A stretch of DNA of 64,000 nt, from IMG/VR virus record IMGVR_UViG_3300017971_000004, positions 64,001-128,000 of that record; one strand, 5' to 3'. Under the pieces are notes generated by a model. The model was given only the letters and a program-made list of their open reading frames with translations. It was not told the DNA's origin and did not search any database. The stretch is from a virus. Its lineage: Duplodnaviria > Heunggongvirae > Uroviricota > Caudoviricetes. Made by a program: the position numbers and the translations under genes. This document shows positions 2,491-39,966 of the stretch, one piece after another (position 1 is the stretch's first letter; each line of letters begins with the position of its first letter).

Positions 2491-3419
2491 AAATCTATGT
2501 GATCCAAAGCCCGGGATCGCGATCCGATAATCAGCTAGATCGACCCCCGGGGTCCAATAATCCCCAAGATCCGCCGAAATCAGCATAATCTTCGGCAAAC
2601 TTAGGAAGATTATCCAACTTCCAGCAAACTTCAGCCCAACTTCAGGACCAGCCGCCTTGTCGGATTGTCAACACTCAGGAAGATTCACCCTTGTCAGATT
2701 ATCAATAGGCAACACGATGGATTATCGGATTGACTTGCCCAACACCTGGCCAACTTCAGCCCAGGTTGGCGAGATGAATGCGCCCATCTTGGCCAGGATT
2801 GGCCCGAACTCGGGAACCTCTACAACCTATCCCTGGAGCCCAAGCTCCTTAAGCACGGACAGGACTTCACGGAGCTGCTTCGAGGAGCCGCCCAGACCAG
2901 CTCTGCGCCCCGCTACCAGCCATCGCCAGCGCCTGCCGGCCTTCCAGATGTACACCATATCGAACCTCCTCGTCGAGCCTATCAATCCTTCCCAAGGCGG
3001 GTCAACTTTTCGGCTCTCCGTTGGTCGGAGACCACATCTTCCGAACTTCGACCAAGTTCGGGAAAGGTTGGTGAAGATGGATCACGATCCGTCTGACGAG
3101 AGTGTATCGATTCTTGATGGAATTGCGCAATCGTTAACGGTCGGGCAAGTTGGGTGTTGACGAATCGTCAACTCTATTTCGAATATCAATGCGGTTCGAG
3201 GATGGATTTTCGGATTAGTTCAATGTTTGCGAGAGGTTGATGAAGTTCGGCTGGGGAAGTTGCCGAAGATTGTTCAAGGATCGCGGATTTTGGATCGGAT
3301 TGGGACGGATCGCGATCCGCGCGATCCGCTGGTCTGGTCGATTCTCACCTATATACTGAGAGCCTACTTGACGGGTACTTGATGGCCGCTTGCTTGCCAA
3401 TCCCGACCCAACCTCACCA

Positions 3420-3740
3420 ATCTCCGTCCACTTCGTTCCAATCTCGGCAACTTGCTCCCTCTATCCAATCCTTGGCCACTCCGTTCCGAACTTGGCAACT
3501 TCGAACCAACCTCATCTATCTGTCCAACTCCTTGGATGTACCCAGGCGAGTTTCTGGTGGGGGAAGTATCTACCGACTTCATCAAGCTTGCCGACTTACT
3601 CCAGCCGGCCAATCCTTGTCCACTTCGTTCGAGTGAAGCAACTTGGTCAACTTCATCCCTTCGAGCTAACTTCATCTATCTGGCCAACTCGAACTGAAGT
3701 CACCAACTCCTCGGATATACCCAGGCGAGTTTGGCTGATG
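3420..3740. repeat. imperfect direct repeat of about 140-160 bp (units about 3420-3560 and 3610-3740)
   Basis: shared segments ccacttcgttc..caacttg, cttcatctatctg(t/g)ccaactc, caactcct(t/c)ggat(g/a)tacccaggcgagttt. Confidence 0.7.
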
Positions 3741-4092
3741 AGCTATGAGGAGAGGGGATGTACTTACCATGGAGAGAATCTGCCGCGCCATCCTCCTTTT
3801 CAACCACCTGATGTATCGGGTGCAATCTTAGCTTGGACCGACGAAGTCGTTAGAACTTCGAAGTTGAAGTTCAGAAGTTCGGGACTTCGAGGTTCAGCAA
3901 GTTCGGGCCGTCATACAGACGGTTGCTCCAGGGTACCGGTCACGAGGATCTGAGAGACGAAGTCGTGACTTCCCACATTCCTTCGACCGCTTCGTCCACG
4001 GGATCCTTGAACTTGGGTTTGCTCCAGCTCCGGGCCGCGAGCTGGGCTCGAAGATCAGCCAGGTCTGTATCTTCGTCGTGCTCGCCTACCAA

Positions 4093-4535
4093 TCACTCGT
4101 CCTCTTCATCTTCCCAATGTTCGTCGAGTCCTTCGTTCCAGATCTCCAGCTGACGCTCGGGCTTCAGAAGTTGGTTTTTCGAAAGAACCGCATACTCCTG
4201 CTTGAGACGCTCCTGGCTGCCCTGCTGACGGCGCGCGAGACGATAAGGGTAGAACTCCACCGGCAGCTCCGGCAGCCCGCAGAGGCGGCGGTGCAGCTGC
4301 TGGACGCCCCAGGAGGGCTCGTACCGGTCGCAGACGTGGAGAACTTCATCAATGGGATTCGGGAACTTCATCTTCTTGAGATCTTCGAACTTCTTGGAAG
4401 TATCGAGATCGTAGAAGCAGTATACCTCCTCCTCGAAGATCTCCTTGTCGCCGATGATGCCCATCCTCGTGTCGACCGCCCGGTGCTCGCAGGTGGCGCA
4501 GCATTCGGGGAACGTCGGTCTCGGCTTGCCCATGA
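4093..4535 (-). CDS. hypothetical protein (start at internal MGKPRPTFPECCATCEH...; longer ORF 4093..4800 has Arg-rich junk N-terminus)
   Basis: ATG at about 4533-4535; acidic C-terminus EHWEDEEDE. Confidence 0.5.
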
Positions 4536-4589
4536 CCCCTCCTACAGCTTGGTCGCGACGATATGAATGAACATCGCATCGTCTCCATT

Positions 4590-5009
4590 TCAACCGTTCT
4601 CCTTCGATTTCTCCAGTTCCTTCTCCAGCTTGTCGATGGCGGCGTCCACCTTCTTCCCGTAGGCCCGCATCCGCTCCAGGTAGGCCTCGACGGCGGCTCG
4701 CTCCTCCCGGTACAGATCGGGCTGCTGGTACTTCAGGACGCCCGTGATGCCGCCCTGCTTCTCGGTCCTGAACCTGCCGGCACCGATCATCATCGCGCAC
4801 AGGTCGAACGGGGACGCCGACTGCTCTTCGCCCTGGAGATAGAGCGTCAGCCCGGTCTTCTCGCTCTTGTGGACCGTGAAGACCTGCTTGTGCTGGGAGA
4901 TGTAGCTGTCGCAGATCTCCACGTACTCCAGCACGCTGAACTGAGGAGAGCCGGTACTCTCGTCGATGAGATAGAGCTTCTTGGGGCGGTCTTTCTCGGG
5001 TTCGGACAT
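4590..5009 (-). CDS. hypothetical protein
   Basis: 139 aa ORF, good composition. Confidence 0.55.
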   Translation of the reverse strand: MSEPEKDRPKKLYLIDESTGSPQFSVLEYVEICDSYISQHKQVFTVHKSEKTGLTLYLQGEEQSASPFDLCAMMIGAGRFRTEKQGGITGVLKYQQPDLYREERAAVEAYLERMRAYGKKVDAAIDKLEKELEKSKENG

Positions 5010-5018
5010 CCTTTCCTC

Positions 5019-5318
5019 CTACTGCAAGCCGTTCAGCCGTCCCAGCAGCTCGTCCGCGAGCGCCAGGTAATGAGGCACGAGGTTTTGATTGCCGTCCGGG
5101 TTGCCGTTGGAGTTCCCGGCGAGCGCTTCTCTCCAGAAGGTGAGGGCCTCCCGGAAACCTTCGACCATCTCCGTGATCTTGGACCGCTGTTCGTCCGAGG
5201 GTTCGAAACCCTGTCGAAAGTCGACTAAGGTGTCTTCCAGCATCGCCAGCGTGGCCCCGAACTGGCCGTGGATTTCCATGACGCGGTCGATGGCTTCCTG
5301 CTTGGTCAGCTCAGTCAT
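5019..5318 (-). CDS. hypothetical protein
   Basis: 99 aa ORF. Confidence 0.55.
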   Translation of the reverse strand: MTELTKQEAIDRVMEIHGQFGATLAMLEDTLVDFRQGFEPSDEQRSKITEMVEGFREALTFWREALAGNSNGNPDGNQNLVPHYLALADELLGRLNGLQ

Positions 5319-5640
5319 GTTTCTCCATCTCGAAGGTGATCACGAGCGCACCCCTGTCGGAGATGGTCGCCCTCGTTTTCACTCGGATCACCGAGACCGC
5401 CAGCTTGAAGTGAAGCAGGCTCGGATCCTCCTCGTCGACCCAGACGGGACATTCGTAGTCCTCCAGCCCGAGATCGACCGTGGCGAACCAGGCCTCTCCG
5501 ACCGGCGTCTCCTCCCAGGGCAATACCAGCGCGCCCCAGTCGGGACCGTATACCTTCCCGAGATCCGCCGGGTTCACCAGGATCGCGTCGCTCCCGGGCG
5601 TGTCAGGCCAGAGATCCGGAATCAATTGATCGTTCGACAT
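5311..5640 (-). CDS. hypothetical protein
   Basis: 109 aa ORF, overlaps neighbour by a few nt as in operons. Confidence 0.55.
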   Translation of the reverse strand: MSNDQLIPDLWPDTPGSDAILVNPADLGKVYGPDWGALVLPWEETPVGEAWFATVDLGLEDYECPVWVDEEDPSLLHFKLAVSVIRVKTRATISDRGALVITFEMEKHD

Positions 5641-5641
5641 C

Positions 5642-5770
5642 TCAGCTCTCCTGCTCTTCTCCTCCGTAGATGACCATCACCGGCTCGATCTCTTCGCCGG
5701 CTACGTCCTCGATGTATTTGATGCAGGCGATGCAATAATCATCAGCATCACTGAAGATTTCTTTTTTCAT
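5642..5770 (-). CDS. small hypothetical protein (42 aa, MKKEIFSDADDYCIACIKYIED...)
   Basis: internal ATG at about 5768-5770; upstream ORF extension is Arg-rich junk. Confidence 0.3.
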   Translation of the reverse strand: MKKEIFSDADDYCIACIKYIEDVAGEEIEPVMVIYGGEEQES

Positions 5771-6114
5771 ATCGTCTCCTTGAACCGTTCCAGCTCTCCG
5801 TCGATCTCGCGTATCCGAAAAATCTGACCTTCGATCATTCCTGCCAACCGGAACATCTCTTCTTCGAGCATCTCGTTGACGGTCGGCTCCTCCCACGACC
5901 AGATCCACCTCCAGGCCAGCCGCTGGAATCCCCGGAGATGGGTGACGCACCAGCTCTCCGCTTCGTCGCGTTCTTCCCAAAGCATGAACCTTTCGACTTC
6001 GCGCAACAGGTCCCAGCCGAGACTCTCCAAAGCTCCTGCCGGCACGGCTTGGTACAGGTGGGCTCCGATCATCTCCTTGAGGAAGTCGGCTTCGAGGATT
6101 GGTTCAGAGTTCAT
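5767..6114 (-). CDS. hypothetical protein
   Basis: 115 aa ORF, ATGA-type overlap with downstream gene. Confidence 0.5.
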   Translation of the reverse strand: MNSEPILEADFLKEMIGAHLYQAVPAGALESLGWDLLREVERFMLWEERDEAESWCVTHLRGFQRLAWRWIWSWEEPTVNEMLEEEMFRLAGMIEGQIFRIREIDGELERFKETI

Positions 6115-6332
6115 TCCGGAACCTGCACCACGGTCGTCCGGTCGTAGTCAGGTTCTCCGGTTACGGCGATGCGCATCTCCGGATCCTTGGGCTGGCGACC
6201 GCCGGTCACCGTCTCCATCGCACCGTGGTCCCATGCTTCCGCCTTGTCGCGAGCCTCGTCCTCGTCTTCGGCCTCCACTACCCTCCAGACCTCGACAGTT
6301 ATCGGGACGCTAATCTCGAACTTGGGCATCAT
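6111..6332 (-). CDS. hypothetical acidic protein
   Basis: 73 aa ORF. Confidence 0.5.
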   Translation of the reverse strand: MMPKFEISVPITVEVWRVVEAEDEDEARDKAEAWDHGAMETVTGGRQPKDPEMRIAVTGEPDYDRTTVVQVPE

Positions 6333-6550
6333 GGTTCTCCTTCTTGGCGCACTGCCGACACTGCTTATGCTTTATCTCCGCGAGGTCCTTTTCGGCCTCG
6401 GCAGGATGACAAACCTTCTCATGACCGCATTCCAGGATGAAGAAGACGCTTTTACCACGTTGGATACGATCAACCACCAGGCGTTTCGGGCCACCTTTCG
6501 GTCGGCTGCGGGGACGGTCCTTGCGCCGTCTGTGTCCCCTCGCGCTCATC
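6310..6550 (-). CDS. small basic zinc-ribbon-like protein (start at MSARGHRRRK...)
   Basis: CGHEKVCH..CRQCAKK Cys pairs; trimmed from ORF 6310..6672. Confidence 0.4.
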
Positions 6551-7160
6551 AATCCTCTTCCGGATGCGCTTTGCACCATTCGCAGTCGCAGTCGGGATCG
6601 TCGTGCCAGTTGATCCAGGCGATATCGTCGCCTTCGAGGGAGACGCCGCCAGGCATCTTGCACTCCGAGCACCGAACTTCGTCACCTTCGTAGAACTCCT
6701 CGTCGCTCGGGCTATCGGTGAGGATCTCTGGGTCGCCCCCGCAGTATGGACAGCTGTCCCACTCGATCATCACCCAGCGCTTGCCGAAGGCGTCTTTCTC
6801 AGCTGAATAAGAAGAAGAAAAAACTTTGTTTTTCTTGACTTTGCTCGACTCGCGCACCTTTTGCTTGAACTCTTCGATGATGTCGAGCCGGTTGGTGACG
6901 GGATTGCAATAGTCTTCTCGAAAGCTGCGAATCTCCTCGGCCATCTTGACGGCCACCTTTCGCCAGTCGAGGTTTTCGGTATCGGGGCGCAGGAAAGCGG
7001 GCTCGCATTCGCTGAGCGCGCCCACGATGCGGTCGGCGATCTCCTTGCGCTCCAGCAGCTTGACGCCGTAGCCAGCGAGAACGTCCACGATGAGCGTCCA
7101 CGATGCGCTGTAGAGTAGGTTTTTCGGACGAGTTCCAAGGGTAGGTTCAACCTTCTTCAT
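6549..7160 (-). CDS. hypothetical Cys-rich (zinc-binding?) protein, start at MKKVEPTLG...
   Basis: CPYCGG...CSECK...CDCEWC motifs; ATG at about 7158-7160. Confidence 0.5.
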   Translation of the reverse strand: MKKVEPTLGTRPKNLLYSASWTLIVDVLAGYGVKLLERKEIADRIVGALSECEPAFLRPDTENLDWRKVAVKMAEEIRSFREDYCNPVTNRLDIIEEFKQKVRESSKVKKNKVFSSSYSAEKDAFGKRWVMIEWDSCPYCGGDPEILTDSPSDEEFYEGDEVRCSECKMPGGVSLEGDDIAWINWHDDPDCDCEWCKAHPEED

Positions 7161-8968: not shown

Positions 8969-9820
8969 TTATCGTCGTCCACGATGGCCCCCTCCTTCCA
9001 AACCGAGCGCCTTGCGCTTCGCCTCTTCAATGACCTTCCAAGCCTCGTAGTAGCGGTTGAAATGGTCTTCGAGGGCCATGATGAGCCGTCCCATGTTGGC
9101 CTTGTAGAAGCCGGCGCAATTGACGCAGCCGCACTCGACGATCTTCCATTCGTCGTCGACCATGCAGACGTCCATCACGAAGGCGTCGGCGAGCTGGAAG
9201 ACCTTGACCATCTTCTCGCAGAACTCTCGGGCTGCGGGATCGATAGCTCCGCTTTGCACGACCTGTGTCCCGAGCTTGTAGAGACTCCCCGTGACGATCT
9301 CACCGCCCACCACCCAGAAGCGATACTCCTTTTGGATCTTCTTCACCGAGGCGACCTGGATGGGCGTCAGACTGCTCAGCGACGAAGTGTGGCCGTCCGT
9401 GAGCTTCCGCTGCTGGAACTCGCGCCAGCCGTCCTCGTCGAACACCTGGCCGTTGAAATCCTTGGTATCAGCGCACGGGCGGATGAAATAGGCCTGCTTC
9501 TCCCACTTCCAGTCGTCCCGGAACTTCCGAAGCTCCGAGTCCCAGTTGAGAAGATGCTCCCGGTAATGGTTGCGATACACGAAGAAGTGATGATTCGCGT
9601 TCACCAGAACGCCCGGCACCCAGTCGAACTTCTTGGCCAACCGGACCATCTTGAGCGAGCCGAACACGAAGACATCCCGCCGCTTGGTCTGAACTTCGAA
9701 GTTCTCGACGAACGGCAGAACTTTGACGACTTCCCAGTCGAGCTGAAGACGCTCCAACGTCCGCGTCAGAGCATCATACCCTTCCTCGCGGAACACGTTC
9801 TCTTGTATCACATAGAACAT
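8969..9820 (-). CDS. ATP-grasp domain protein
   Basis: C-terminal ADAFVMDVCMVDDEWKIVECGCVNCAGFY resembles the ATP-grasp metal/ATP loop; start placed at MFYVIQ (9820), just downstream of promoter -10 at 9834-9839. Confidence 0.5.
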   Translation of the reverse strand: MFYVIQENVFREEGYDALTRTLERLQLDWEVVKVLPFVENFEVQTKRRDVFVFGSLKMVRLAKKFDWVPGVLVNANHHFFVYRNHYREHLLNWDSELRKFRDDWKWEKQAYFIRPCADTKDFNGQVFDEDGWREFQQRKLTDGHTSSLSSLTPIQVASVKKIQKEYRFWVVGGEIVTGSLYKLGTQVVQSGAIDPAAREFCEKMVKVFQLADAFVMDVCMVDDEWKIVECGCVNCAGFYKANMGRLIMALEDHFNRYYEAWKVIEEAKRKALGLEGGGHRGRR

Positions 9821-10271: not shown

Positions 10272-10430
10272 CCTTTCTCCTTTCTGCGGCCTTCTGGCTG
10301 ACTATCTTGCTGTCGATCTGTCTGGGGATAATATACAGGATTGGGAGATGGTGGAATCGAACCACTTGCCTCGTGGAGGAGCGGGTTTACAGCCCACCGC
10401 AGGCCCAGCCTGCCTTAGAGCACCTCCCGT

Positions 10431-10519
10431 TGCACGGGGTGGGATTCGAACCCACACTGTCTCTTAAGCGTTGCCCTGGGGCCTGAACCCAGCGCCTCTA
10501 CCAGTTGGGCTACCCGTGC
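10431..10519 (-). tRNA. tRNA-Leu(CAG)-like, class II (long, poorly paired variable arm)
   Basis: hand-folded: acceptor GCACGGG/CCCGTGC, T-arm GTGGG-TTCGAAT-CCCAC, anticodon stem CTGGG/CCCAG loop TTCAGGC. Confidence 0.5.
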
Positions 10520-10557
10520 GCTATCTAGATGCTAATTAGCGTCTAATTAGCATCTGG

Positions 10558-10630
10558 TGGACAGGGACGGAGTCGAACCGCCTACACCCGGAACTTCAAT
10601 CCGGTGCTCTACCAGTTGAGCTACCTGTCC
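10558..10630 (-). tRNA. tRNA-Phe(GAA)
   Basis: clean cloverleaf GGACAGG-TA-GCTC-AACTGGTA-GAGC-A-CCGGA-TTGAAGT-TCCGG-GTGTA-GGCGG-TTCGACT-CCGTC-CCTGTCC-A. Confidence 0.8.
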
Positions 10631-10632
10631 GT

Positions 10633-10705
10633 TGCGCGTGGAGGGATTCGAACCCCAACATCCGGACCCTCAGTCCGGCGACTCTGCCAGTTGGCCTACA
10701 CGCGC
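10633..10705 (-). tRNA. tRNA, anticodon GAG (Leu-type) in a class-I-length (73 nt) body
   Basis: acceptor GCGCGTG/CACGCGC, anticodon stem CCGGA/TCCGG loop CTGAGGG; weak D-stem and 4-nt variable loop. Confidence 0.5.
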
Positions 10706-10772
10706 GTTGTGTTTCACCTGCTGTCAGCAACCTCCGTTGTCGCTCACTTTCGAACGAATCTGATCAACCAAG

Positions 10773-10846
10773 TGCGACCGCCGGGAGTCGAACCCGGAAC
10801 ATCCTGCTTTTGAAACAGGCGACTCTGCCAGTTGGCCTACGGTCGC
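10773..10846 (-). tRNA. tRNA, anticodon CAA (Leu-type) in a class-I-length body
   Basis: acceptor GCGACCG/CGGTCGC, T-arm CCGGG-TTCGACT-CCCGG, anticodon stem CCTGT/GCAGG loop TTCAAAA; D-region identical to previous tRNA. Confidence 0.5.
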
Positions 10847-10850
10847 TCGA

Positions 10851-10923
10851 TGCGTCCGCCAGGATTCGAACCTGGAACCCCCGGTGTTTAAAGCCGGTGC
10901 CTCTGCCGTTGAGCCACGGACGC
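10851..10923 (-). tRNA. tRNA, anticodon UAA (Leu-type) in a class-I-length body
   Basis: acceptor GCGTCCG/CGGACGC, T-arm CCAGG-TTCGAAT-CCTGG, anticodon stem CCGGC/ACCGG (one C.A mismatch) loop TTTAAAC. Confidence 0.45.
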
Positions 10924-10927
10924 TCGG

Positions 10928-11001
10928 CAGGAGAGCCAGGATTCGAACCTGGGTTTGAGGACTTGGAAACCTCCGTGCTGGACCGCTCGCACTACTCTCC
11001 C
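10928..11001 (-). tRNA. tRNA-Trp(CCA)
   Basis: acceptor GGGAGAG/CTCTCCT, D-stem GTGC/GCAC, anticodon loop TTCCAAG. Confidence 0.55.
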
Positions 11002-11003
11002 GT

Positions 11004-11076
11004 GGTGACCGACGAGACTTGAACTCGCAACGACCGGGGCCACATCCCGGCGCTCTACCAGTTGAGCTACGGCCAC
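11004..11076 (-). tRNA. tRNA-His(GTG), discriminator C, no encoded G-1
   Basis: GTGGCCG-TA-GCTC-AACTGGTA-GAGC-G-CCGGG-ATGTGGC-CCCGG-TCGTT-GCGAG-TTCAAGT-CTCGT-CGGTCAC-C. Confidence 0.75.
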
Positions 11077-11078
11077 AG

Positions 11079-11163
11079 CGGAGGACGCAGGGCTCGAACC
11101 TGCACCGGGATGAACCGGACGACGCCTTAGCAGGGCGCTGCGATACCATTCTGCCAGTCCTCC
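11079..11163 (-). tRNA. tRNA-Ser(GCT), class II
   Basis: acceptor GGAGGAC/GTCCTCC, anticodon stem GCGCC/GGCGT loop CTGCTAA, long variable arm with CCGG-TTCAT-CCGG stem. Confidence 0.75.
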
Positions 11164-11228
11164 ACATTAAAATTTTCCTCCATTTTCTTTAATAGTTCGG
11201 ATCCTAATTAAAACTTTCTTCAATACTG
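11164..11228 (-). promoter_or_regulatory. AT-rich (about 28% GC) spacer inside the tRNA array, candidate internal promoter or processing region
   Basis: acattaaaattttcctccattttctttaatagttcggatcctaattaaaactttcttcaatactgag in an otherwise >60% GC region. Confidence 0.3.
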
Positions 11229-11301
11229 AGTCCCGAGCCGGAATCGAACCGGCGTCTGAGGATTTGCAGTCCCCCGCTTGAACCTGCTCAGCTACCGGGA
11301 C
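11229..11301 (-). tRNA. tRNA-Cys(GCA), discriminator U
   Basis: acceptor GTCCCGG/TCGGGAC, anticodon stem GGGGA/TCCTC loop CTGCAAA, T-arm GCCGG-TTCGATT-CCGGC. Confidence 0.7.
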
Positions 11302-11304
11302 AAG

Positions 11305-11376
11305 CAGGGCCGGGCGGAGTCGAACCGCCGTACTCGGGTCCAAAGCCCGATGCTCTACACGTTGAGCTACGACCCC
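11305..11376 (-). tRNA. tRNA-Gln(TTG)
   Basis: GGGGTCG-TA-GCTC-AACGTGTA-GAGC-A-TCGGG-CTTTGGA-CCCGA-GTAC-GGCGG-TTCGACT-CCGCC-CGGCCCT. Confidence 0.7.
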
Positions 11377-11378
11377 GG

Positions 11379-11468
11379 AGGAGGGCGAGGGATTCGAACC
11401 CCCACGCCGGGACAACGCCGACGACCGCGATTTTCGAGACCGCTCCAATACCGTTCTGGCAGCCCTCC
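11379..11468 (-). tRNA. tRNA-Ser(CGA), class II; 3-prime CC encoded and abutting next tRNA
   Basis: acceptor GGAGGGC/GCCCTCC, anticodon stem GCGGT/ATCGC loop CTCGAAA, long variable arm. Confidence 0.7.
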
Positions 11469-11513
11469 GATTGGTAAATCTTTCCATCACTTAACACTTC
11501 TTTACCGTTCGAG

Positions 11514-11600
11514 CGGAAGCGCCTGGACTCGAACCAGGACCACGGGAAACCGTGCTCTCGGCCTTCCAAGCCGGGGCCTTACCGTTGAGGCTACGCTTCC
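11514..11600 (-). tRNA. tRNA-Ser(GGA), class II
   Basis: acceptor GGAAGCG/CGCTTCC, D-stem GCCT/AGGC, anticodon loop TTGGAAG, variable arm CACGG-TTTC-CCGTG, T-arm CCTGG-TTCGAGT-CCAGG. Confidence 0.65.
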
Positions 11601-11738
11601 GAACTGGAAACGATTAGCTTAGATAAAGCAGTGATTGATGCTGGATAAACGAGGAGAGACACCAGAGGCGGGGAGCCTTGGCGGTGGGGGCGATCATCTT
11701 TCCGATTCGCTTTCGACGTTTCATCGGTCTCTCCTCGG

Positions 11739-11812
11739 TCCGGGCGAGAGGATTTGAACCTCCAACCTCTAGATCCCGAATCTAGCGTGCTACCAGATTG
11801 CACTACACCCGG
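11739..11812 (-). tRNA. tRNA-Pro(CGG)
   Basis: CCGGGTG-TA-GTGC-AATCTGGTA-GCAC-G-CTAGA-TTCGGGA-TCTAG-AGGTT-GGAGG-TTCAAAT-CCTCT-CGCCCGG-A. Confidence 0.75.
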
Positions 11813-11942
11813 ATAGTCTACAGCCCCTCGCGGGGTGGTGTAGGCTTCCGGGCTGGTCGTGCTGTCTGGTTCTTCTTCATCGCACGCTTCTTCGCGCCGC
11901 TACGCGGCGAAGTCTCAAATATAGAAGAAGCCCTCAAAGAGA

Positions 11943-12437
11943 TCAAGCAGAAAGTTCAGAGTCGAGCTTTTCCTTCAAGCCGGTGCCGCTCTCCGTGGTC
12001 ATCCCCCACTGGATGTCCTCATAGGGAATCTCGTTCTCGCGCATCAGCTCCTGGATCAACGCGCGGCCTACTCCCTTTCCCTGCGCCTCGGGCTTGACCT
12101 CGATCATCTTGAGATGCGTCTCGCCGCGCCAGAGAGTGTAGTCCACGTAGCCGAGCCCTTCGCCGGTCTTTGCGTCCTTGGCGACGATCCAGGCGTCCCA
12201 CTGGTCGCCGAGGGCATCACCCCCGTGCTCGAAGGCGAGGGCGTCGCCCTGCTGGGCGTTCCGACCCGTTACGAAAGGAAGCAGCCGAAGAAGAAGCATC
12301 CACTGAGAGAACGCGTTCTCCTCTTCGAAGCGTCTTTTCTCCCGCTCGATGGCCCGCTCAGGTTCATCCTCTTCGATCTCGGGCACCTCGTCACCGATGC
12401 GACGAAGGGCTTCCGTGTTCAGTCCGTGGAGCCGCAT
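11943..12437 (-). CDS. GNAT-family N-acetyltransferase with conserved N-terminal leader MRLHGLNTEALRRI
   Basis: acetyl-CoA binding motif MIEVKPEAQGKGVGRALIQELMRE; start trimmed to the MRLHGLN methionine. Confidence 0.6.
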   Translation of the reverse strand: MRLHGLNTEALRRIGDEVPEIEEDEPERAIEREKRRFEEENAFSQWMLLLRLLPFVTGRNAQQGDALAFEHGGDALGDQWDAWIVAKDAKTGEGLGYVDYTLWRGETHLKMIEVKPEAQGKGVGRALIQELMRENEIPYEDIQWGMTTESGTGLKEKLDSELSA

Positions 12438-13090
12438 CAGTCCTCCCAGACCGAATCGATGAGGTCGTAGATGAGATCGACCTGCTCGTCGGCGAAGTGC
12501 CAGCGGACATCGATGTTGTCGTCGGCCCATTTCTTCGGATCGCCGTCTAGCTCCTCGGACATCGCGCACCAGTCGGCCACCATCTCCGCGATGTCGAGGT
12601 CGCCCATCCCGGTACCGTCGATGACCTCGTCGGGAGCTGCATCCCGGTCGTCCTCGTCGACCACATCGAGCGTCTCCATCTGATGATACTCAGGGTGATG
12701 CTTGCTGTTCAGGATGTGGTGCTGCGTGGCGACGTTGATCGCGTCCTCCATCCCCCCGGGCAGCTCGCACTCGATGCCCTCATCCTCGCACTTGTAGCGC
12801 CAGGTCAGCCAGATGTACGGCTCCAGCTCGGGCTCTTCGAACTTGATCTGGTCGTGTTCTTCACCGCGCTCGATCAGGCCGTCGAAACCGTCCCAGGCAT
12901 CCTCGATCTTCTTGCAGTACTTCTGCACGCGCTCGATGTGCTTGTTGGTCCGGTCGTAGAAGTGCTGTTCCATCTCGTCGGTGATCTGCTGAGCGACACG
13001 CCGAAGGCTGTCAAGCGCGCCCTGGACAGTCATGCCACTACGCATTCCGACCCGGATGATCGCGTTCCGGTCGAGTCCCCGAAGTCTCAT
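12437..13090 (-). CDS. acidic hypothetical protein with N-terminal leader MRLRGLDRNAIIRVG
   Basis: start trimmed to MRLRGLD; ATGA overlap with previous gene. Confidence 0.5.
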   Translation of the reverse strand: MRLRGLDRNAIIRVGMRSGMTVQGALDSLRRVAQQITDEMEQHFYDRTNKHIERVQKYCKKIEDAWDGFDGLIERGEEHDQIKFEEPELEPYIWLTWRYKCEDEGIECELPGGMEDAINVATQHHILNSKHHPEYHQMETLDVVDEDDRDAAPDEVIDGTGMGDLDIAEMVADWCAMSEELDGDPKKWADDNIDVRWHFADEQVDLIYDLIDSVWED

Positions 13091-13374
13091 CCCTCTTTCA
13101 CCGGAGGAAGGTCCCGCAGGACTTCCCACGCCTCGTTGAAGATCCAAGGAGTCTCATCGTATCGTCCATTCTGCTGCTTGAGTAGCACCACGTAACAGTG
13201 ATCATCGATGGCGATCTGAGCACGACCTCCGTACTCGTCTGCCAGCGTAGCTACGGGCTCGAACTCCGCGCCCTCCGGATCATCGTTGTCCCAGATAGCT
13301 CGATCATCGGTCTCCACTTGCACGTATCTCGCGATACGTCGAAGTGACTCTCGGTTGAGACCGTGGAGTCTCAC
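13087..13374 (-). CDS. small hypothetical protein with N-terminal leader (GTG start) MRLHGLNRESLRRIARY
   Basis: 95 aa ORF; GTG start verified by hand at 13372-13374. Confidence 0.5.
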   Translation of the reverse strand: MRLHGLNRESLRRIARYVQVETDDRAIWDNDDPEGAEFEPVATLADEYGGRAQIAIDDHCYVVLLKQQNGRYDETPWIFNEAWEVLRDLPPVKEG

Positions 13375-14687: not shown

Positions 14688-14893
14688 CAGTCGAGCCCCA
14701 ACCGGTGCGCGACCGCCTCGCACTCGTGACAAGTTATACCGTCCTTCAGCTGGCCGGCACGGTTGCGCTTGACACCTGCCAGCGTCGGACGACTGGGGTC
14801 CGCCGCCGATTCGCAGACGTGCTCCCAAAGGAGCGCGCTGAGAGGCTTCGCCCACTTGGGACGATTCTTCCACTTCGGAGCCTTCTTTGTCAT
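14687..14893 (-). CDS. small hypothetical protein
   Basis: 68 aa; GGAGG ribosome-binding site 8 nt upstream of ATG (plus-strand cctcc 14902-14906). Confidence 0.5.
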   Translation of the reverse strand: MTKKAPKWKNRPKWAKPLSALLWEHVCESAADPSRPTLAGVKRNRAGQLKDGITCHECEAVAHRLGLD

Positions 14894-14964: not shown

Positions 14965-14973
14965 CAAATTCTA

Positions 14974-15007
14974 GATAAAAAAGGCCGATGCTCAAAAGCA
15001 CCGGCCT
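14974..15007 (-). terminator. rho-independent terminator (minus strand)
   Basis: GGCCGGTGCTTTTGAGCATCGGCC hairpin followed by TTTTTTATC in minus orientation. Confidence 0.55.
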
Positions 15008-15336: not shown

Positions 15337-15634
15337 CTACAGAGTCTCATCAACGACGTTGCCCAAGGTATCCAGGGCAATGTCCTTGATGAGTTCCTGA
15401 AGCTCTCGGAAACGAGGATGAGAAGTGAACCGTTCCTCGGCTCGGGCCAAGGTAATGCCTCCTCTCGGAAGCTTGTTCCAGTCGACGGCTGAAGACCGAG
15501 GCAGCCTGCGCGGCAGCTTGCGGAAGCCCCCATTCAAGATCTGTCAAGACATCGTCCCAGTCGACCTCGAATCCTTCGCGCTCGATGCGCTCCTTCTCTT
15601 CCTGATAGCCGCCACCGAACGGATCACTCGACAT
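15337..15634 (-). pseudogene. hypothetical gene with apparent +1 frameshift at a G5/C5 homopolymer (about 15525-15529)
   Basis: N-terminal MSSDPFGGGYQEEKERIEREGFEVDWDDVLTDLEWG in one frame, C-terminal ...AVDWNKLPRGGITLARAEERFTSHPRFRELQELIKDIALDTLGNVVDETL* in the adjacent frame. Confidence 0.35.
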
Positions 15635-16178
15635 CGGGCTCCTCCATCACTTCATGGGGCTCTTCGTCAATGCGATGCATCTCGAACTCGACGCCGGCCT
15701 CGTTGCAGACTTCTTCGAAACCTTCGATCACCTTGTCAGTGTCCTCCCAGATCTCCACCCGTGTCGGCTGATGTTCCTCGATGAGTTGACGGAGCATCTC
15801 GGGCTTCCAGACTTCTGAGCGAGAGCCCTCCGGGGCGAGCCGGATCTCATCGAAGTCGAGATCTTGTTGATCGAGCAGCTCGTTGATCCGATCTTCGAAC
15901 TTCTCGAAGCGACCAGTCACGAGCACGAACGCCGCGTCAGCTGCTTGCTCCGACTCGTGAGCGTCTCGAAGAACCTTTTGCACCCACCAGTCGGTCGTGG
16001 GCTCCTCGGGCACCTGAGGCTCCTCCAGGCTCTTCTCGTTGGACCACCATCCTCGCTCGGGCCACCCTTTCGGTTTCTCGGGACTACGGAACAGAGTGCC
16101 GTCGAAGTCGTACAGATGAAGCACCTTTGCTCCCGCGAGGCGGCGGAGTCCTTGCTTGGTAATGCCGAGAACGATCAT
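15624..16178 (-). CDS. HAD-superfamily phosphatase-like protein
   Basis: motif I LYDFDGTLF, motif II VLVTGR; acidic C-terminus. Confidence 0.55.
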   Translation of the reverse strand: MIVLGITKQGLRRLAGAKVLHLYDFDGTLFRSPEKPKGWPERGWWSNEKSLEEPQVPEEPTTDWWVQKVLRDAHESEQAADAAFVLVTGRFEKFEDRINELLDQQDLDFDEIRLAPEGSRSEVWKPEMLRQLIEEHQPTRVEIWEDTDKVIEGFEEVCNEAGVEFEMHRIDEEPHEVMEEPDVE

Positions 16179-32304: not shown

Positions 32305-34737
32305 CTACTTCTTCTTCGCCTTCTGCTGCGCGTCGGGATTGCCGGGACGCCCACGGTTCGGACCGTAGGGATTGAGAACGAAACCATCGTTGAGCAGGTG
32401 CGGGAACCAATGGTCCTTCGAGCAGGTGTGGAGTCGGCGCAGGATATAGTTCTGCTCGACATGCGCATACTCACGAGGGAACGAGTCGAGCCCCTGCTCC
32501 TCCGCCTCGACCATGTCCCCCAGCACCACGTCGTAGCCCGGAGGTGTGAACCGCTGAAGCTCGATGTCTTCCACCGCGCCGGGCTTGGCGTCTCCCTCGT
32601 TCTGCGCGTTCTTCATCTTGCCCTCCCTGCCGAAAGCATGTTCTTCGGCCAGTTCGGCCAGGAAGTCCCAGTCGACATAGTACTCCGGGCCGCTGACGGC
32701 CCCGAAGGCTGCCTGGAGCGCTTCCGGCAAGTCGATGTCCTGAGTGCTCTGGACAAGGTCCATCATCTCCGAATGCTTCTTCTGGTCCAAGAGGATGTCA
32801 TCGAAGAGTTCCCGAGTCGTGTCCCCGACATCGAGCAGTTCCTCCCATCCTTCGGCCTGGGCCTTCTTGGCCTTCATCAAGTACTTCCCAATGATCTTCG
32901 CCACCCGCTTGGCCGCGACCTCCTCGACTCCGAACCCGACATAGGCGACGAGGTCCTCGGTGAGCCCGTACCAGTCGATCTGGTTGGGATCAACTCCAAT
33001 GCTCTGCGTCAACGGCAGCACGGCATCGTAGATGACGCTGACCTGATCCTCGACATAAGGCTCCTGCATCGCGAACTTGACCATCTCCATGATCTGCGGC
33101 TGCCGGGTGATCTGGACATAGAGGTCACCGGTCGGATCGCCGCTGCTCTGGTACTGAGGAGTGCTCTGGCCTGGGTACGAGGGCGCGACCACCGTGGGAT
33201 CGGTGGCGATGCCCGGGTCTCCCATTGCGGACGGGATGGCCGGAGAAGTAGCCTGCGCCGCTTTGGCCGTGACTTCGGGCTCAGGAGCAACTTCCTCTTC
33301 GGGCGTCTCGCCGGGAGCAACGACCCCCTCCTCGACCGGAGCACCAGCACTGAGCAGCGCGTTCGCGATGTGGGTCCAGTCGACTTCACCAACTTCCGAG
33401 ACATCTTCCTGCGGAATCGCAGTCTGGAAGGTGGGCTCCGATTCGAGCTGCCGCGCGAAGGTCTGAACGTTGAGGCTCTGGCTGGCGAGCCGGCTGGCGA
33501 TGTTCCAGTACGCAGGATCGCTCACAATGGCGTTGTAGACCTGCTGGGTAGCAGAGTTGATGAAGCCGCCCCAGTAGCCCTCCTGGCCCGTCTCCAGATG
33601 CACAGATGGAGACGTTCCGGTCGGTAGTTCATCACCGAACGGGTCGCTGAAAAACTGCTGGACCTGCTCCCACCATTGCGCGTCGTGCCGGCTCGAATCC
33701 TTGCCGGAATGCTCCTTCTGCTCCTTCTCGCGCTTCTGCTTGTCCGCATTGTCCTGCTGACGATCCCGATCCTTCTTCCGCGACTTCTCTCCTGGCGTCT
33801 CGCGCTTGTAGTCGGAGTCGAGGTCCCGGGGATCGTGGTTCTCCTGTTCGAGCAACGTATCCTTGTTCTCCTTCATCGGAGAACCGGGAACGTTCCAGTC
33901 GCGCTCGTTGAAGTCCTGAGCCTGCCGATGAGCTTCCGAACGAGGAGGACGCCCTTCGTAGCGTGCCTCCCACTCCTCGTAGCTCTCACCCGGCTCACGC
34001 TGACGTTCCCATTCCCGGATCCGCTCACGCTCCCCTTCCGACAGGCCTTTCTCCAACCATTCCTTCGCTTCCTCAGGGGACTCGAACGCCCGCTTCGCCA
34101 AGGACCTCGTAAGAAGGTTCTGGCCGGAGAACTCGCGCGGTTGCCAGCCCCGGCTGTTGCGCTGCTCGACGGCAATGTCCAGCTCGTCCCCCCTCAGAGG
34201 GGGCGAGTACTCGCCGCGCAAAGGCTCCAGGTAGAAAGAGGTGTTGCGGTTCACGATGGAGTCCACCGTGTTCTGCCCGAGCACGTACATCCGGTCCTCG
34301 AAGACGATCGTCGAGGGAGGCACCACGGCCCCATCGTGGATGGTCACCGGCAGAAGAGCCTGCCGCGTCACGCCGGTCACGGTGCAGATGCGCAGGTTGA
34401 ACAGCACCTCGGCGTCGATGATCTGGTCTTCATCGTGACGAGCGTGCCGGACGTTCTTGACGTTGTTGTAAGAGACCTTCGGCGGCAACGGCCAGTGGAG
34501 CACGTCGAGCGCGGCTTGGGCGGCGATGGCGGCTTCCTGGATGAAGGCGTTCAAGCTGCGATCACCGGGCTTCAACCCGACTTGCTTGACCTTCGAAAAG
34601 ATGTCCAGCAAGTCGATGTCGGTCGCAGTCCGATGTTTCATCGCCGCACGCATTTTGGCGACCCTCTCATCCCAGCTCTGGAAGAGCGGATGTGCGGAGA
34701 CGTGGGACTTCTTCTTGAGTTCAGTGAACGTCGGCAT
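32305..34737 (-). CDS. large hypothetical protein (810 aa), possible virion or ejected protein
   Basis: long uninterrupted ORF with protein-like composition; no recognised catalytic motif. Confidence 0.55.
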   Translation of the reverse strand: MPTFTELKKKSHVSAHPLFQSWDERVAKMRAAMKHRTATDIDLLDIFSKVKQVGLKPGDRSLNAFIQEAAIAAQAALDVLHWPLPPKVSYNNVKNVRHARHDEDQIIDAEVLFNLRICTVTGVTRQALLPVTIHDGAVVPPSTIVFEDRMYVLGQNTVDSIVNRNTSFYLEPLRGEYSPPLRGDELDIAVEQRNSRGWQPREFSGQNLLTRSLAKRAFESPEEAKEWLEKGLSEGERERIREWERQREPGESYEEWEARYEGRPPRSEAHRQAQDFNERDWNVPGSPMKENKDTLLEQENHDPRDLDSDYKRETPGEKSRKKDRDRQQDNADKQKREKEQKEHSGKDSSRHDAQWWEQVQQFFSDPFGDELPTGTSPSVHLETGQEGYWGGFINSATQQVYNAIVSDPAYWNIASRLASQSLNVQTFARQLESEPTFQTAIPQEDVSEVGEVDWTHIANALLSAGAPVEEGVVAPGETPEEEVAPEPEVTAKAAQATSPAIPSAMGDPGIATDPTVVAPSYPGQSTPQYQSSGDPTGDLYVQITRQPQIMEMVKFAMQEPYVEDQVSVIYDAVLPLTQSIGVDPNQIDWYGLTEDLVAYVGFGVEEVAAKRVAKIIGKYLMKAKKAQAEGWEELLDVGDTTRELFDDILLDQKKHSEMMDLVQSTQDIDLPEALQAAFGAVSGPEYYVDWDFLAELAEEHAFGREGKMKNAQNEGDAKPGAVEDIELQRFTPPGYDVVLGDMVEAEEQGLDSFPREYAHVEQNYILRRLHTCSKDHWFPHLLNDGFVLNPYGPNRGRPGNPDAQQKAKKK

Positions 34738-39100: not shown

Positions 39101-39966
39101 TCCTCGGACCACGCGCTGAACGCACCGCTCAAGGCGTCCCACACCGCATCCTCATCGGAGTCCACCGGCAGCCGTTGAAGCTCCGAGATGGCGATGAACG
39201 GATCGACAACCATGTCGTTGCGAGCATCGAAGAGATGGACGGTCCCGTCCGGATTGTCTTCGACAGAGATGCTGGTCTGGAAGTTCTCCATCAGCTGCTG
39301 GAGGCGCTCTCCGAGACCACTCATCTGCCGACCACCCGGCATCTGCTGGAGCGTCTCGATCACGTCTTCCTGCGTCTGGCCCCGACGACGACCGAACCGG
39401 TTCCGACCGTCTTCCTCGATGCGGACCTTCTTGTCGTGCCAGTTGGTCGGAGCGCCGGAGGTATCGGAACCGAGGCTCGTGTCGGGGAGACCACCCTCTT
39501 CGATGTTCGGGCGTGGACGCTTGTTGATCGCCGGGTCGAAGCTCTTGAGACCCTTGTTCGTCGAGTCCGGACCGAGGGATGTATCCGGTTTCGAGGTGCC
39601 CTTCTGGTCGGTCCCCTTGGGACGCTGGTTGATCTCCGGATCGAACTTCCCTTTCGGCTCCTTGCTGTCGGAGTCGGGGCCGAGGAGCGACTGAGCATCG
39701 CCGGGAAGCTTGACCTGATCACCTTGGGTCTCGTTGACCTTGGGAATCGGCATGTCGGCCTTCTTGCAGAAGTCGGCCACCACCCGATCGAGATGCCCGA
39801 TGTGGGTCATGTACCCGTCGTGGTCGCCAGGGGGCCAGAGTTCGACCATGTCGTTGTTGTTGATCCGGATCATCCAGCCGCTCGAAGCTTCCACGATCCT
39901 GCCCCGAAGAACGGCGTCCTTCACCTGACGGGGGTTGTACCGGGCTTTCCGTGTTGCGTTGCTCAT
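36130..39966 (-). CDS. giant hypothetical protein (1278 aa), candidate internal virion/ejected protein with Ala/Pro-rich linkers
   Basis: single long ORF; low-complexity AP-rich C-terminal third. Confidence 0.6.
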   Translation of the reverse strand: MSNATRKARYNPRQVKDAVLRGRIVEASSGWMIRINNNDMVELWPPGDHDGYMTHIGHLDRVVADFCKKADMPIPKVNETQGDQVKLPGDAQSLLGPDSDSKEPKGKFDPEINQRPKGTDQKGTSKPDTSLGPDSTNKGLKSFDPAINKRPRPNIEEGGLPDTSLGSDTSGAPTNWHDKKVRIEEDGRNRFGRRRGQTQEDVIETLQQMPGGRQMSGLGERLQQLMENFQTSISVEDNPDGTVHLFDARNDMVVDPFIAISELQRLPVDSDEDAVWDALSGAFSAWSEEDMSAVASKEGLHEPQKPKRGPGQLGVGKAQMGEEAPQAAPGVAARRKAEEDPFKVRPVEEPGKKLNKGENPSDPEEVISQSKGEKKELREETEGKGKMGIRDSFEDATPDPTAIYQDLRRARPSEDLLRDIMDPQKWAANNIFLPTDQAEKNQRRAQMFEEEEPFDYDRGDLNPEHLYDYIQDLKRAADESGNDAMFEHLRMAEQAMESGDYGEAFDHAEEAEQAFDEEAWKVAYRRHQGRVVKFAQWALGEDTTSEAIAYLVDQGYDELAASEIINAYLRGDTLDFQSAYLAEEALGGAAKAARRIGQQSEVTAEEDKEAVAPKGWEKTVKEMKDEPGIDNPWALSWWMKDKGYTPGGSEETKKKEKKSRRTAGPKLKENWSGDGSYGREIGAESAEELHALTMALGGEEVDWSKFKPAQPEGAPVEEQGVVDEQSAEQVAPVQASRWEDEQSPFDDDVQPEPGIEKSLDSSEPSREGRRRALTPPDDEEIGAGEFAGDKPETTYESGMESIGNVTDINYERFGPGKFDDNVQEFLYAGMLDGWGEDLGDEGFGVYTFLDLGEPVTVHQDGDEWSFAAAILHEDTNGFVYTDYFDTSEEGAKAWAELEKDYEDFLDEYPEWREGRRHAQEAEVEGGKGCPRAENRGRSSMPDEDHEAACDRKSERAEKEAVDPEAEQYWEGYMGDYGKQLTEGDTGKPKPDTKDKGKKKDKKKADLNDPGYQKRKAAYLRARREAQAGAPLAEPTTPAPTPAPGAPPAGGAPAAPPAPAGPAKPEALPPGSGDSGLQALGWTAEDIALLDEEDKKKILQIQLNKPGTKKKPLTPGEKPGVPEPKAPTPPTPAAPAPGGVPKPMTPAARQRLAKLILRKVNRRKLLSQAAPEPAAPMTPAPPTPDAGAPGAAPPTPPAGAEATLPEFDAGDGSSEEERALQLLSDVQEMEVSATTPEQVPSLKASFLARKLLTELGMTVQDAKKLYGLGSQRGLTSLFE

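Follow-up and report, generated by a model that had tools for sequence, protein, structure and literature searches.

The propeptides of the T4 internal proteins, 10–19 residues in length, direct a variety of proteins to the core of the prohead (PMC9026906, PMC3012670). The SPN3US proteins gp53 and gp54 begin with an identical 15-residue N-terminus and are 34% identical overall, and this shared start has been read as resembling the T4 capsid-targeting sequence (CTS) (PMC5694885). Encapsulin cargo-loading peptides are also short, for example LTVGSLRR from M. xanthus and GGDLGIRK from T. maritima (PMC11190991). On a larger scale, domain mosaicism, in which unrelated phage proteins have a homologous fragment in common, has been described for whole domains by profile comparison (PMC10684548).

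The 64,000-nucleotide stretch of DNA analysed here (the window) belongs to an uncultivated phage with a genome of about 188 kb. It carries three consecutive minus-strand genes, G1, G2 and G3, whose stop and start codons overlap and which begin with versions of one 15-residue leader, given in short form in Table 1 and reading MRLHGLNRESLRRIARY, MRLRGLDRNAIIRVGMR and MRLHGLNTEALRRIGDE in extended form. The gene coordinates and N-termini confirm what the initial annotation had reported, three tandem genes with overlapping stop and start codons and a shared N-terminal leader, and the shared leader is a real observation. In the G1 frame the GTG at 13374 is the earliest possible start. Independent gene callers accepted two of the three leader starts; one public gene call (P0001) lacks the G1 leader because its start was placed at V18, which leaves a protein of 78 aa.

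Table 1. Leader genes, leader copies and neighbouring features in the window (window coordinates).
Feature	Position	Strand	Details
HAD_SAK_1 phosphatase, probable fourth carrier	15624..16178	-	184 aa; begins MIVLGITKQGLRRLAGAKV, followed by HAD motif I, LHLYDFDGT
Diverged leader copy MIVLGITKQGLRRLA on the HAD gene	16134..16178	-	from N-terminal score
Terminator-like hairpin with overlapping sigma70-like promoter	14968..15007	-	11-bp stem, then T run
G1	13087..13374	-	95 aa; GTG start; overlap with upstream stop is GTGA
G1 leader MRLHGLNRESLRRIA	13330..13374	-	GTG start overlaps stop of the preceding 143-aa gene
G2, DUF5662	12437..13090	-	217 aa; overlap is ATGA; leader and about 24 more residues precede the domain
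G2 leader MRLRGLDRNAIIRVG	13046..13090	-	most diverged of the three
Possible partial second leader copy in G2, MTVQGALDSLRRVA	12992..13033	-	residues 20–33; weak support
G3, GNAT	11943..12437	-	164 aa; overlap is TGATG; leader, acidic linker and short GNAT core
G3 leader MRLHGLNTEALRRIG	12393..12437	-	residues 1–15 of G3
Promoter-like site near tRNA array	11946..11918	-	from promoter scan
14 tRNA genes	10342..11812	-	array directly downstream of G3, the last gene before it

When every 15-mer of the six-frame translation (93,135 in all) was scored by mean BLOSUM62 against the three leaders, the leaders themselves reached 46–54 and the next best 23. Likewise, when the N-termini of 77 called genes were compared pairwise (2,926 pairs), the three combinations of leaders scored 56, 36 and 33, as against 22 for the best pair that includes no leader gene, and by these scores the phage has what characterizes the T4 CTS, a short N-terminal peptide on unrelated proteins of one phage. 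The 64 kb contain just three ORF starts that fit the pattern R-[LIVM]-x-G-[LIVM]-[DN].

The nucleotide alignment of the gene starts retains only 28 invariant columns out of 121, and the differences are mostly synonymous (pS 0.68–0.85). Nei–Gojobori counts over codons 2–14 gave pS = 0.85 and pN = 0.09 for G1 versus G3 (Fisher p = 6e-6), and pS = 0.78 and pN = 0.36 for G2 versus G3 (p = 0.012), in agreement with the earlier claim that codon usage differs among the leaders and that selection acts on the peptide. Nucleotide-level conservation independent of codon position was not found at the leader starts of G1–G3. Since synonymous sites are saturated while the amino acids are kept (G1/G3), the leader is an old translated peptide under selection and not a DNA or RNA motif, and we are highly confident that this tag exists, that it is translated and that selection acts on it as a peptide. 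An RNA hairpin was also considered and was rejected: the GAGAC-N6-GTCTC palindrome in G1 is not kept in G2 or G3.

Beyond the leader the three proteins are unrelated, as had been noted originally: compared with each other, the leaderless bodies give BLASTP E-values from 0.9 to 44. They do not constitute a tandem paralogue family, given the lack of body similarity, the different Pfam families and the fact that their homologues elsewhere are not neighbours. After its leader, G1 consists of the 75–80-aa core of a widespread family of small phage proteins with the invariant motif PVATLADEYGGR...IDDHCY. Twenty-four of 30 aligned family members start 0–3 residues before the position matching Y17 of G1, and the remaining members have N-terminal extensions unrelated to the leader; the genomic surroundings of G1 homologues are unrelated and include neither DUF5662 nor GNAT neighbours. 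G2 matches DUF5662 (PF18907) over residues 40–194 (87.2 bits, cutoff 27, E = 1.2e-24). Its 15 IMG/VR homologues align from about residue 34–40 on, all without the leader, which is absent from the 13 DUF5662 homologues whose N-termini were read, the true relative L001 included; none of the 15 homologue loci has an MRLxGL-type ORF start. A literature search found no paper mentioning DUF5662. G3, described from the outset as a GNAT acetyltransferase, retains that assignment on matches that are weak yet above threshold (PF13508, 31.8 bits, cutoff 27; PF00583, 28.8 bits, cutoff 20.7) and on the GNAT motif QGKGVG at residues 103–108. Its matches to GNATs in the PDB are weak (E 0.003 to 0.3), and a search for sequence homologues returned only G3 itself.

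A probable fourth carrier lies 2.7 kb upstream of the leader genes. This gene encodes a HAD phosphatase (PF10307, 63.8 bits, cutoff 25.6) whose domain runs from near residue 17, with DFDGT at residues 24–28. Its N-terminus is the best leader match after G1–G3, scoring 27 against G1 where pairs without a leader gene reach at most 22. Of its 11 IMG/VR homologues, ten have alignments that begin at residue 20, those with high GC start M-x-E-LHLYDFDGT, and the leader is absent from these homologues. An HMM built from the three leaders did not recover the HAD N-terminus from the six-frame translation. As for G2, residues 27–35 (DSLRRVAQQ) were preferred by MAFFT as the partner of ESLRRIARY in G1, and judging from the sequence the leader of G2 may be split, or part of it may be present a second time. 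In unanchored local alignment both the HAD copy and the second G2 copy fall inside the background range, and because neither is significant without N-terminal anchoring, we grade the former probable and the latter weak. There is no linker between leader and folded core in G1 and in the HAD protein, a feature that speaks against the address reading preferred below. Because the peptide is missing, in other phages, from the homologues of G1, of DUF5662 and of the HAD phosphatase, we regard the leader as a lineage-specific add-on.

Searches for the leader beyond these genes covered 81.5 kb of the phage, that is the window and 17.5 kb outside it, and found no further copy beyond the local cluster. 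A strict degenerate DNA pattern of the G1/G3 leader had no match in IMG/VR. A looser 36-bit pattern covering all three leaders matched 3 times in IMG/VR, 17 times in JGI metagenomes and 28 times in GTDB genomes; these matches are all ORF-internal, antisense or in unrelated contexts, and none is a phage gene start. Recurrent ORF-internal matches to this pattern read VRLRGLD..Y.V. Against 1.84 billion representative proteins the leader profile returned one spurious eukaryotic RhoGAP-repeat protein, a 15-residue profile being unable to reach the E-value cut-off, and a word-index search with the 40-column leader alignment, which missed G3 itself, gave no candidate.

Among the conditions on which the initial annotation would have abandoned its reading was that the leader be confined to the three genes as a simple local duplication of paralogues. 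It is indeed confined to the local cluster within the 81.5 kb, and a simple duplication of paralogues is contradicted by the unrelated bodies. Since there are at most four copies, the HAD copy included, and all lie within 4.3 kb on one strand, local unequal recombination had a part at least in spreading the leader. More radically, successive recombination at one gene-start junction might have copied the first 45 nt and left a peptide without function. The clustering fits such a history, three of the copies being adjacent, as do the possible tandem copies in G2 and the plasticity of accessory regions beside tRNA arrays. A neutral relic, however, should lose residues as fast as it loses synonymous identity, and G1 and G3 do not behave in this way; the same pS/pN pattern recurs in four copies of a different peptide on another phage contig (L002, below), and DNA identity across the leader junctions is low. 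We therefore consider a functionless by-product highly improbable. If the tag were a recombination scar only, it would be a minor point on how accessory regions grow.

The leader has a net charge of +2 to +3, as against −12 to −36 for the acidic carrier bodies, a mean hydrophobicity between −0.39 and +0.12, and hydrophobic residues at positions 3, 6, 11 and 14. In an AF2 model of G1, residues 1–10 have a pLDDT of 51 and residues 8–14 form a short helix; in a single-sequence AF2 model of G3 the leader pLDDT is below 50, with a helix at residues 9–14. Leader pLDDT is about 40–51 across these two independent models, and in neither is the leader packed against its own carrier protein. The leader is predicted to be flexible, MRLxGL forming a short extended segment and xExLRRI, after it, an amphipathic helix of two turns. 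Three familiar kinds of explanation were set aside. A Sec or Tat signal peptide is not compatible with the lack, after the RR, of a hydrophobic core, which in such signals spans at least 7–10 residues, and with the charged residues that follow the leader (RYVQVETDD, DEVPEIEEDE); there is no GG at the leader end, as a double-glycine bacteriocin leader would have; and a halophile or archaeal virus origin, suggested by the acidic bodies, does not fit the ordinary median pI of 5.5 for 77 proteins.

An exposed, flexible extreme N-terminus of the kind predicted could also control the amount or timing of these proteins, as a degron, as a protease or chaperone signal, or through codon or nascent-peptide tuning of coupled genes. 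The overlapping stop and start codons of G1–G3 imply translational coupling, and other possible starts follow each leader within 16–20 codons (V18 in G1 and G3, M16 and M20 in G2), so tagged and untagged forms could both be made. These internal starts, however, have no convincing Shine–Dalgarno sequence, an RNA-level signal is unlikely because the mRNA is not conserved at synonymous sites, and degrons for a host protease would be expected across phages, yet this tag is private to one. Control of this sort seems to us quite unlikely.

The reading that we prefer is that the tag is an address. The 15 residues are a portable translated peptide that this phage lineage has added in front of the natural N-termini of three or more, probably four, unrelated accessory enzymes, namely the small G1 protein, the DUF5662 protein, the GNAT and the HAD phosphatase, and it would give all of them one common binding partner. 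We put the chances that it acts as such an addressing or docking label at about even. The partner is probably encoded by the phage, because the tag is private to this phage and other phages use different peptides, where a conserved host hub should impose the same motif. In its most concrete version the label would load cargo into the assembling prohead, in the manner of the T4 CTS or of encapsulin cargo-loading peptides; in a second version it would hold the enzymes together or anchor them on a complex made by the phage.

The genomic context bears on both versions. The hairpin and overlapping promoter in Table 1 likely mark the boundary between the HAD transcription unit and an eight-gene unit that ends with G1–G2–G3, and promoter-like sites in that stretch number six as against 0.9 expected. 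The leader genes sit in a replication, tRNA and accessory region, with an R2K ATP-grasp gene also nearby. What the 81.5 kb read encodes is replication, recombination and accessory functions; genes for head proteins, scaffold or protease are absent from it, and the subset of ORFs whose proteins were scanned includes no capsid-like family. On weak evidence, the sigma70-like promoter and the replication and tRNA neighbours, early expression fits better than head assembly. The family A polymerase is less than 31% identical to that of any isolated phage, and at that distance no cultured relative offers a virion proteome for comparison.

The strict T4-type form of the prohead version holds that the leader binds the scaffolding core or the inner capsid surface, that the proteins are packaged, that the prohead protease removes the leader and that ejection delivers the enzymes to the next host. 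The architecture fits the T4 CTS (PMC9026906, PMC3012670) and SPN3US gp53/gp54 (PMC5694885), and the genome is large. Loss of about 15 residues would restore the N-terminus of the G1 family (MYKQVETD versus RYVQVETD in G1) and that of the HAD protein, 3–4 residues before LHLYDFDGT, and a tag private to the phage is what a partner encoded by the phage itself would produce. Against this, the leader end bears no conserved Glu-type prohead-protease site when judged by the T4 (L/I-x-E) and phiKZ/SPN3US (S/A/G-x-E) consensus, from which this phage's own protease may differ: position 9 is E, N, E and Q, and its P3 residue N, D, N and T, in G1, G2, G3 and HAD, respectively, and no other conserved acidic residue occurs in positions 1–17. 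Moreover, the leader has no sequence similarity to known CTSs, the head genes are not visible in the 81.5 kb, the cargo would be acidic enzymes and not basic DNA-associated proteins, the operon looks early, and the replication genes, with their family A polymerase, are not T4-like. By analogy with T4, then, a cleaved and ejected propeptide is conceivable but doubtful, and we are equally tentative about the broader proposal that the tag acts specifically in capsid loading. What stands of the original interpretation is a selected peptide module on unrelated proteins whose families elsewhere lack it; capsid targeting and the ejected effector drew no support from our computations, and capsid loading lacks direct support because the 81.5 kb contain no head, scaffold or protease gene.

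Two unrelated phage contigs, L002 and L010, show the same layout around DUF5662 genes, each with a peptide of its own. In L002, four modules with unrelated bodies start M[RE]KTANQIADEAL.K, the copies differing from one another at pS 0.31–0.79 and pN 0.03–0.14, and tagged modules are fused in frame to upstream enzymes. In L010, MSLLNE[IL]EN[TM]IE opens the DUF5662 gene as well as a GNAT gene close by. Read as an assembly tag, the shared N-terminal strand and helix would bind the enzymes together, or to a phage-made scaffold in the cytoplasm, as a unit of several enzymes with RNA or tRNA as substrate, the counterpart of the multidomain RNA-repair fusions called 'Swiss Army Knife'. The name HAD_SAK_1 itself denotes a module of such multidomain RNA-repair proteins, and the carriers are all small enzymes beside the 14-tRNA array and the R2K ATP-grasp gene. 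A leader is common to DUF5662 and GNAT proteins in two unrelated phages (that of the window and L010), the in-frame joining in L002 points the same way, and the predicted amphipathic helix, with its hydrophobic positions, would suit such binding. The functional link among the four enzymes, however, is only putative; the GNATs of the window and of L010 have no detectable similarity, and GNATs are common in phages; and a helix of 7–8 residues is short for a stable coiled coil. We judge this assembly role rather improbable.

The recurrence of one layout with different peptides suggests that scans of N-termini within genomes could find such sets systematically. It also allows a wider proposal: private 'zip-code' peptides of 13–15 N-terminal residues would be a general, so far undescribed device of large non-T4 phages, each sending accessory enzymes of varying kinds, DUF5662, GNAT and HAD proteins among them, to one destination built by its own phage, most plausibly the prohead. 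We consider this generalization unlikely; were it true, attaching the tag to a gene would be enough to recruit new cargo, and the window phage (MRLHGLN.E.LRRI), L002 (MRKTANQIADEAL.K) and L010 (MSLLNEIENTIE) would be three independent instances. For the window phage itself, an address label would mark accessory proteins that share a fate, whether as candidate packaged effectors or as members of one complex, and would show phage genes being recruited into that fate by the addition of 45 nucleotides. There would be a practical use as well: a portable loading peptide could serve as the T4 CTS has in packaging foreign proteins.

Among described systems, the T4 CTS of IPI, IPII, IPIII and Alt offers the closest likeness: a short N-terminal peptide (10–19 residues in T4, 15 here) on otherwise unrelated proteins, specific to a phage lineage and carried by non-essential-looking accessory genes in a plastic region. 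The leader differs in having no sequence similarity to it, no conserved L/I-x-E site, acidic enzymes as carriers and a host phage that is not T4-like; packaging and cleavage of its carriers are putative. With SPN3US gp53/gp54 and phiKZ-like propeptides it shares an N-terminus far more conserved than the body. However, gp53 and gp54 are paralogues, whereas the bodies here are unrelated, and the SPN3US proteins have A/S-x-E motifs and were found in virions, whereas the leader here has no such conserved motif and a place of its carriers in the virion is putative.

Encapsulin peptides are likewise short terminal peptides on unrelated enzymes, which in encapsulins they dock inside an HK97-fold shell. 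Their (G)SLRR resembles ESLRRI in G1, DSLRRV at residues 27–32 of G2, ALRRI in G3 and GLRRL in HAD, a likeness of 3–5 residues that is too short for statistics. The encapsulin peptides named above were fused at the C-terminus, the opposite end to this tag, and no shell gene is visible near the tag genes. In T4, gp43, gp33 and gp55 have in common a C-terminal sliding-clamp-binding peptide, so that one short peptide gives unrelated proteins a common partner; that peptide is C-terminal and serves a replication hub, whereas ours is N-terminal on metabolic-type enzymes and its partner is only putative. Finally, the leader resembles domain mosaicism in being a homologous fragment common to unrelated phage proteins, and differs from it in size, 15 residues falling far short of a domain, and in that the repeats lie in one and the same genome.

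Three consecutive minus-strand genes, G1, G2 and G3, overlap in their stop and start codons and begin with a common 15-residue leader (MRLHGLN.E.LRRI). This similarity, reported in the initial annotation, stands far above two backgrounds. When six-frame 15-mers (n = 93,135) were scored for similarity to the leaders of G1–G3, those leaders reached 46–54 and the next best 15-mer 23, and among 2,926 pairs of N-termini (77 called genes, window plus flanks) the three leader pairs scored 56, 36 and 33, against 22 for the best pair without any leader gene. Only G1, G2 and G3 have ORF starts fitting the core pattern of the leader.

Features of the leader genes, their surroundings and the comparison loci
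Feature	Position	Strand	Description
R2K-clade ATP-grasp protein	8969-9820		PF14243 + PF18299; just past tRNA array
14 tRNA genes, compact array	10342..11812	minus	Tyr, Leu x4, Phe, Trp, His, Ser x3, Cys, Gln, Pro
Sigma70-like promoter site	11946..11918	minus	at G3 end, ahead of tRNAs
G3	11943..12437	minus	164 aa; begins MRLHGLNTEALRRIGDE
G2	12437..13090	minus	217 aa; begins MRLRGLDRNAIIRVGMR
G1	13087..13374	minus	95 aa, GTG start; begins MRLHGLNRESLRRIARY
Sigma70-like promoters	14995..14968 and 14893..14864	minus
Strong intrinsic-terminator-like hairpin	15007..14982	minus	11-bp stem + T run
HAD_SAK_1 phosphatase	15624..16178	minus	2.7 kb upstream, in preceding transcription unit
Helicase, SbcCD, RecA, topoisomerase, family A DNA polymerase	window	all same strand
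L002 tagged modules, four	2706-6727		begin M[RE]KTANQIADEAL[LFT]K; bodies unrelated
L010 DUF5662 and GNAT genes	4848-6166		both begin MSLLNE[IL]EN[TM]IE

Comparison of G1 with G3 over leader codons 2–14 gives 85% difference at synonymous sites, a saturated level, and 9% at nonsynonymous ones (Fisher p = 6e-6); for G2 and G3 the values are 78% and 36% (p = 0.012). In a DNA alignment of the leaders plus 46 nt upstream, 28 of 121 columns are invariant. From the saturated synonymous sites, the few nonsynonymous changes and the few invariant columns it follows that the leader arose by an old duplication, is translated as a peptide and is kept by purifying selection, and the earlier argument from differing codon usage, that selection acts on the peptide and not on an RNA motif, is upheld by these counts. 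A DNA repeat of recent origin, an operator and an RNA structure are all ruled out by synonymous saturation and the 28 invariant columns; one RNA hairpin candidate, GAGAC-N6-GTCTC in G1, is not kept in G2 or G3. That the leader is a neutral scar of recombination is unlikely, since the proportion of differing nonsynonymous sites (pN) lies far below that of synonymous sites (pS). One public gene call for G1 (P0001; JGI, ENA and Logan copies) is 78 aa long and starts at V18, dropping the leader (window 13323-13374), so that the tag is under-reported in protein databases. The G1 frame offers no start earlier than GTG 13374, and the distribution of changes over codon positions shows the leader stretch to be read in that frame.

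Behind the leader the three proteins are unrelated, as had been claimed: BLASTP among the leaderless bodies found no similarity. G2 is a DUF5662 protein whose Pfam domain begins at residue 40, and in the 13 IMG/VR homologues with N-termini read these differ from the G2 leader; an MRLxGL-type ORF start occurs in none of 15 DUF5662 loci from IMG/VR, L001 (a relative described below) included. The G1 family is widespread (~75 residues, 49 matches), in unrelated, temperate-phage-like contexts with no DUF5662 or GNAT neighbours. In 24 of the 30 members aligned, the protein opens with MYKQVETD or has 1–3 extra residues before the Y aligned to Y17 of G1, and the remainder carry unrelated N-terminal extensions; the ancestral Met position corresponds to Arg16 in G1, with 15 residues placed ahead of it. 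G3 matches the GNAT acetyltransferases weakly but above threshold, which confirms the earlier assignment, and no sequence homologue besides G3 itself was found. MAFFT by preference pairs G2 residues 27–35 (DSLRRVAQQ) with ESLRRIARY of G1, and G2 might just possibly hold a split or duplicated leader.

Besides G1–G3 and a probable diverged copy on the HAD_SAK_1 phosphatase, a search for further leader-type ORFs, which the initial annotation had proposed, gave none in the window and a total of 17.5 kb past its two ends. The N-terminus of the phosphatase is the best leader match after G1–G3 (27 vs a background of 22), and HAD motif I (LHLYDFDGT) follows directly after its opening residues, MIVLGITKQGLRRLAGAKV. 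Since the Pfam domain starts near residue 17 and 10 of 11 IMG/VR homologues align only from residue 20 (high-GC ones begin M-x-E-LHLYDFDGT), a 15–19-residue piece was probably added to the canonical N-terminus; it fits M-x-[LV]-x-G-[LI]-[NDT]-x-x-x-[LI]-[RI]-R-[ILV]-[AG]. We grade this carrier as probable because the match is not significant unless anchored at the N-terminus. Degenerate DNA patterns found no true leader copy in IMG/VR, JGI metagenomes or 185,579 GTDB genomes.

All-against-all comparison of N-termini inside each fetched DUF5662 locus revealed the same layout with other peptides. L002 (IMGVR_UViG_3300014914_000031; 49% G+C) is unrelated to the window phage apart from its DUF5662 gene. 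Two of its tagged modules continue the reading frame of an SNF2 helicase ORF and of the DUF5662 domain, and both have an SD-like GGAA(A)GG of their own; its leader copies differ pairwise by pS 0.31–0.79 and pN 0.03–0.14. In L010 (IMGVR_UViG_3300035698_006760; 33% G+C) the GNAT gene lies one position downstream of the DUF5662 gene, with a small HNH-like ORF between, and its product has no similarity to G3 detectable by BLASTP. Two unrelated phages, the window phage and L010, thus have a DUF5662 and GNAT pair with a common leader. Because the layouts in the window, L002 and L010 are alike and the peptides different, each phage has a private peptide common to accessory modules inside its one genome.

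By its gene content, the window (58.6% G+C) is the part of a large phage genome given to replication and accessory functions, and several public assemblies contain identical copies (longest 188,449 and 188,555 bp). No close isolated phage was found, the family A polymerase staying below 31% identity with every entry of the phage collection. The only detectable relative, L001 (IMGVR_UViG_3300029288_000163, 70.8 kb), shares 42% identity in RecA, 49% in SbcD, 36% in SbcC and 56% in DUF5662, and its DUF5662 gene adjoins SbcC and has no leader. Four large replication-region ORFs (1278, 810, 556 and 607 aa; 36130-39966, 32305-34737, 40559-42229 and 52512-54335) have no Pfam or PHROG family match. 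A 732-aa ORF of the phage genome (L045:3960-6158), about 2–4 kb outside the window on its left side, encodes a Cas12f1-like/TnpB zinc-finger domain (PF07282).

G1–G3 end an eight-gene unit preceded by the hairpin, which overlaps a sigma70-like promoter, and by both upstream promoters; promoter-like sites number 6 in this 4.8-kb stretch vs 0.9 expected. G3 is the final gene ahead of the tRNA array, which lies directly downstream. The R2K ATP-grasp and HAD_SAK_1 genes suggest a cluster for RNA repair or RNA/protein modification.

The tag is a translated, selected and modular peptide, private to its lineage. Modelling does not predict that it packs against its carriers, and we infer that it would give them one common binding partner, more likely phage-encoded than a conserved host hub, since the layout recurs with a different tag sequence in each phage. 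Capsid loading, in which the tag would act as a prohead address, is an analogy for which the T4 capsid targeting sequence (CTS) is the best-documented precedent: a 10–19-residue N-terminal propeptide with which diverse internal proteins, and foreign ones too, enter the prohead core before gp21 removes it (PMC9026906, PMC3012670). Against it, the leader has no conserved Glu-type cleavage site, G1 and the HAD protein have no linker, the cargo is acidic, the operon looks early, and no head gene was seen in the window and its flanks (17.5 kb in all). Equally open is that the tag ties the HAD, DUF5662 and GNAT enzymes together or anchors them to a complex made by the phage, in favour of which they are encoded beside tRNAs and the R2K ATP-grasp gene. 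A degron or expression-tuning element is possible.

Among known systems, gp53 and gp54 of phage SPN3US have an identical 15-residue N-terminus, also read as CTS-like (PMC5694885), and ESLRRI of the G1 leader resembles, over 4–5 residues, the Myxococcus xanthus encapsulin cargo-loading peptide LTVGSLRR (PMC11190991). The hint of a recurrence of private tags around DUF5662 genes in other phages makes the finding more interesting. The leader is a CTS-like common N-terminal tag, by analogy a candidate for capsid targeting, in an unrelated and uncultivated phage lineage.
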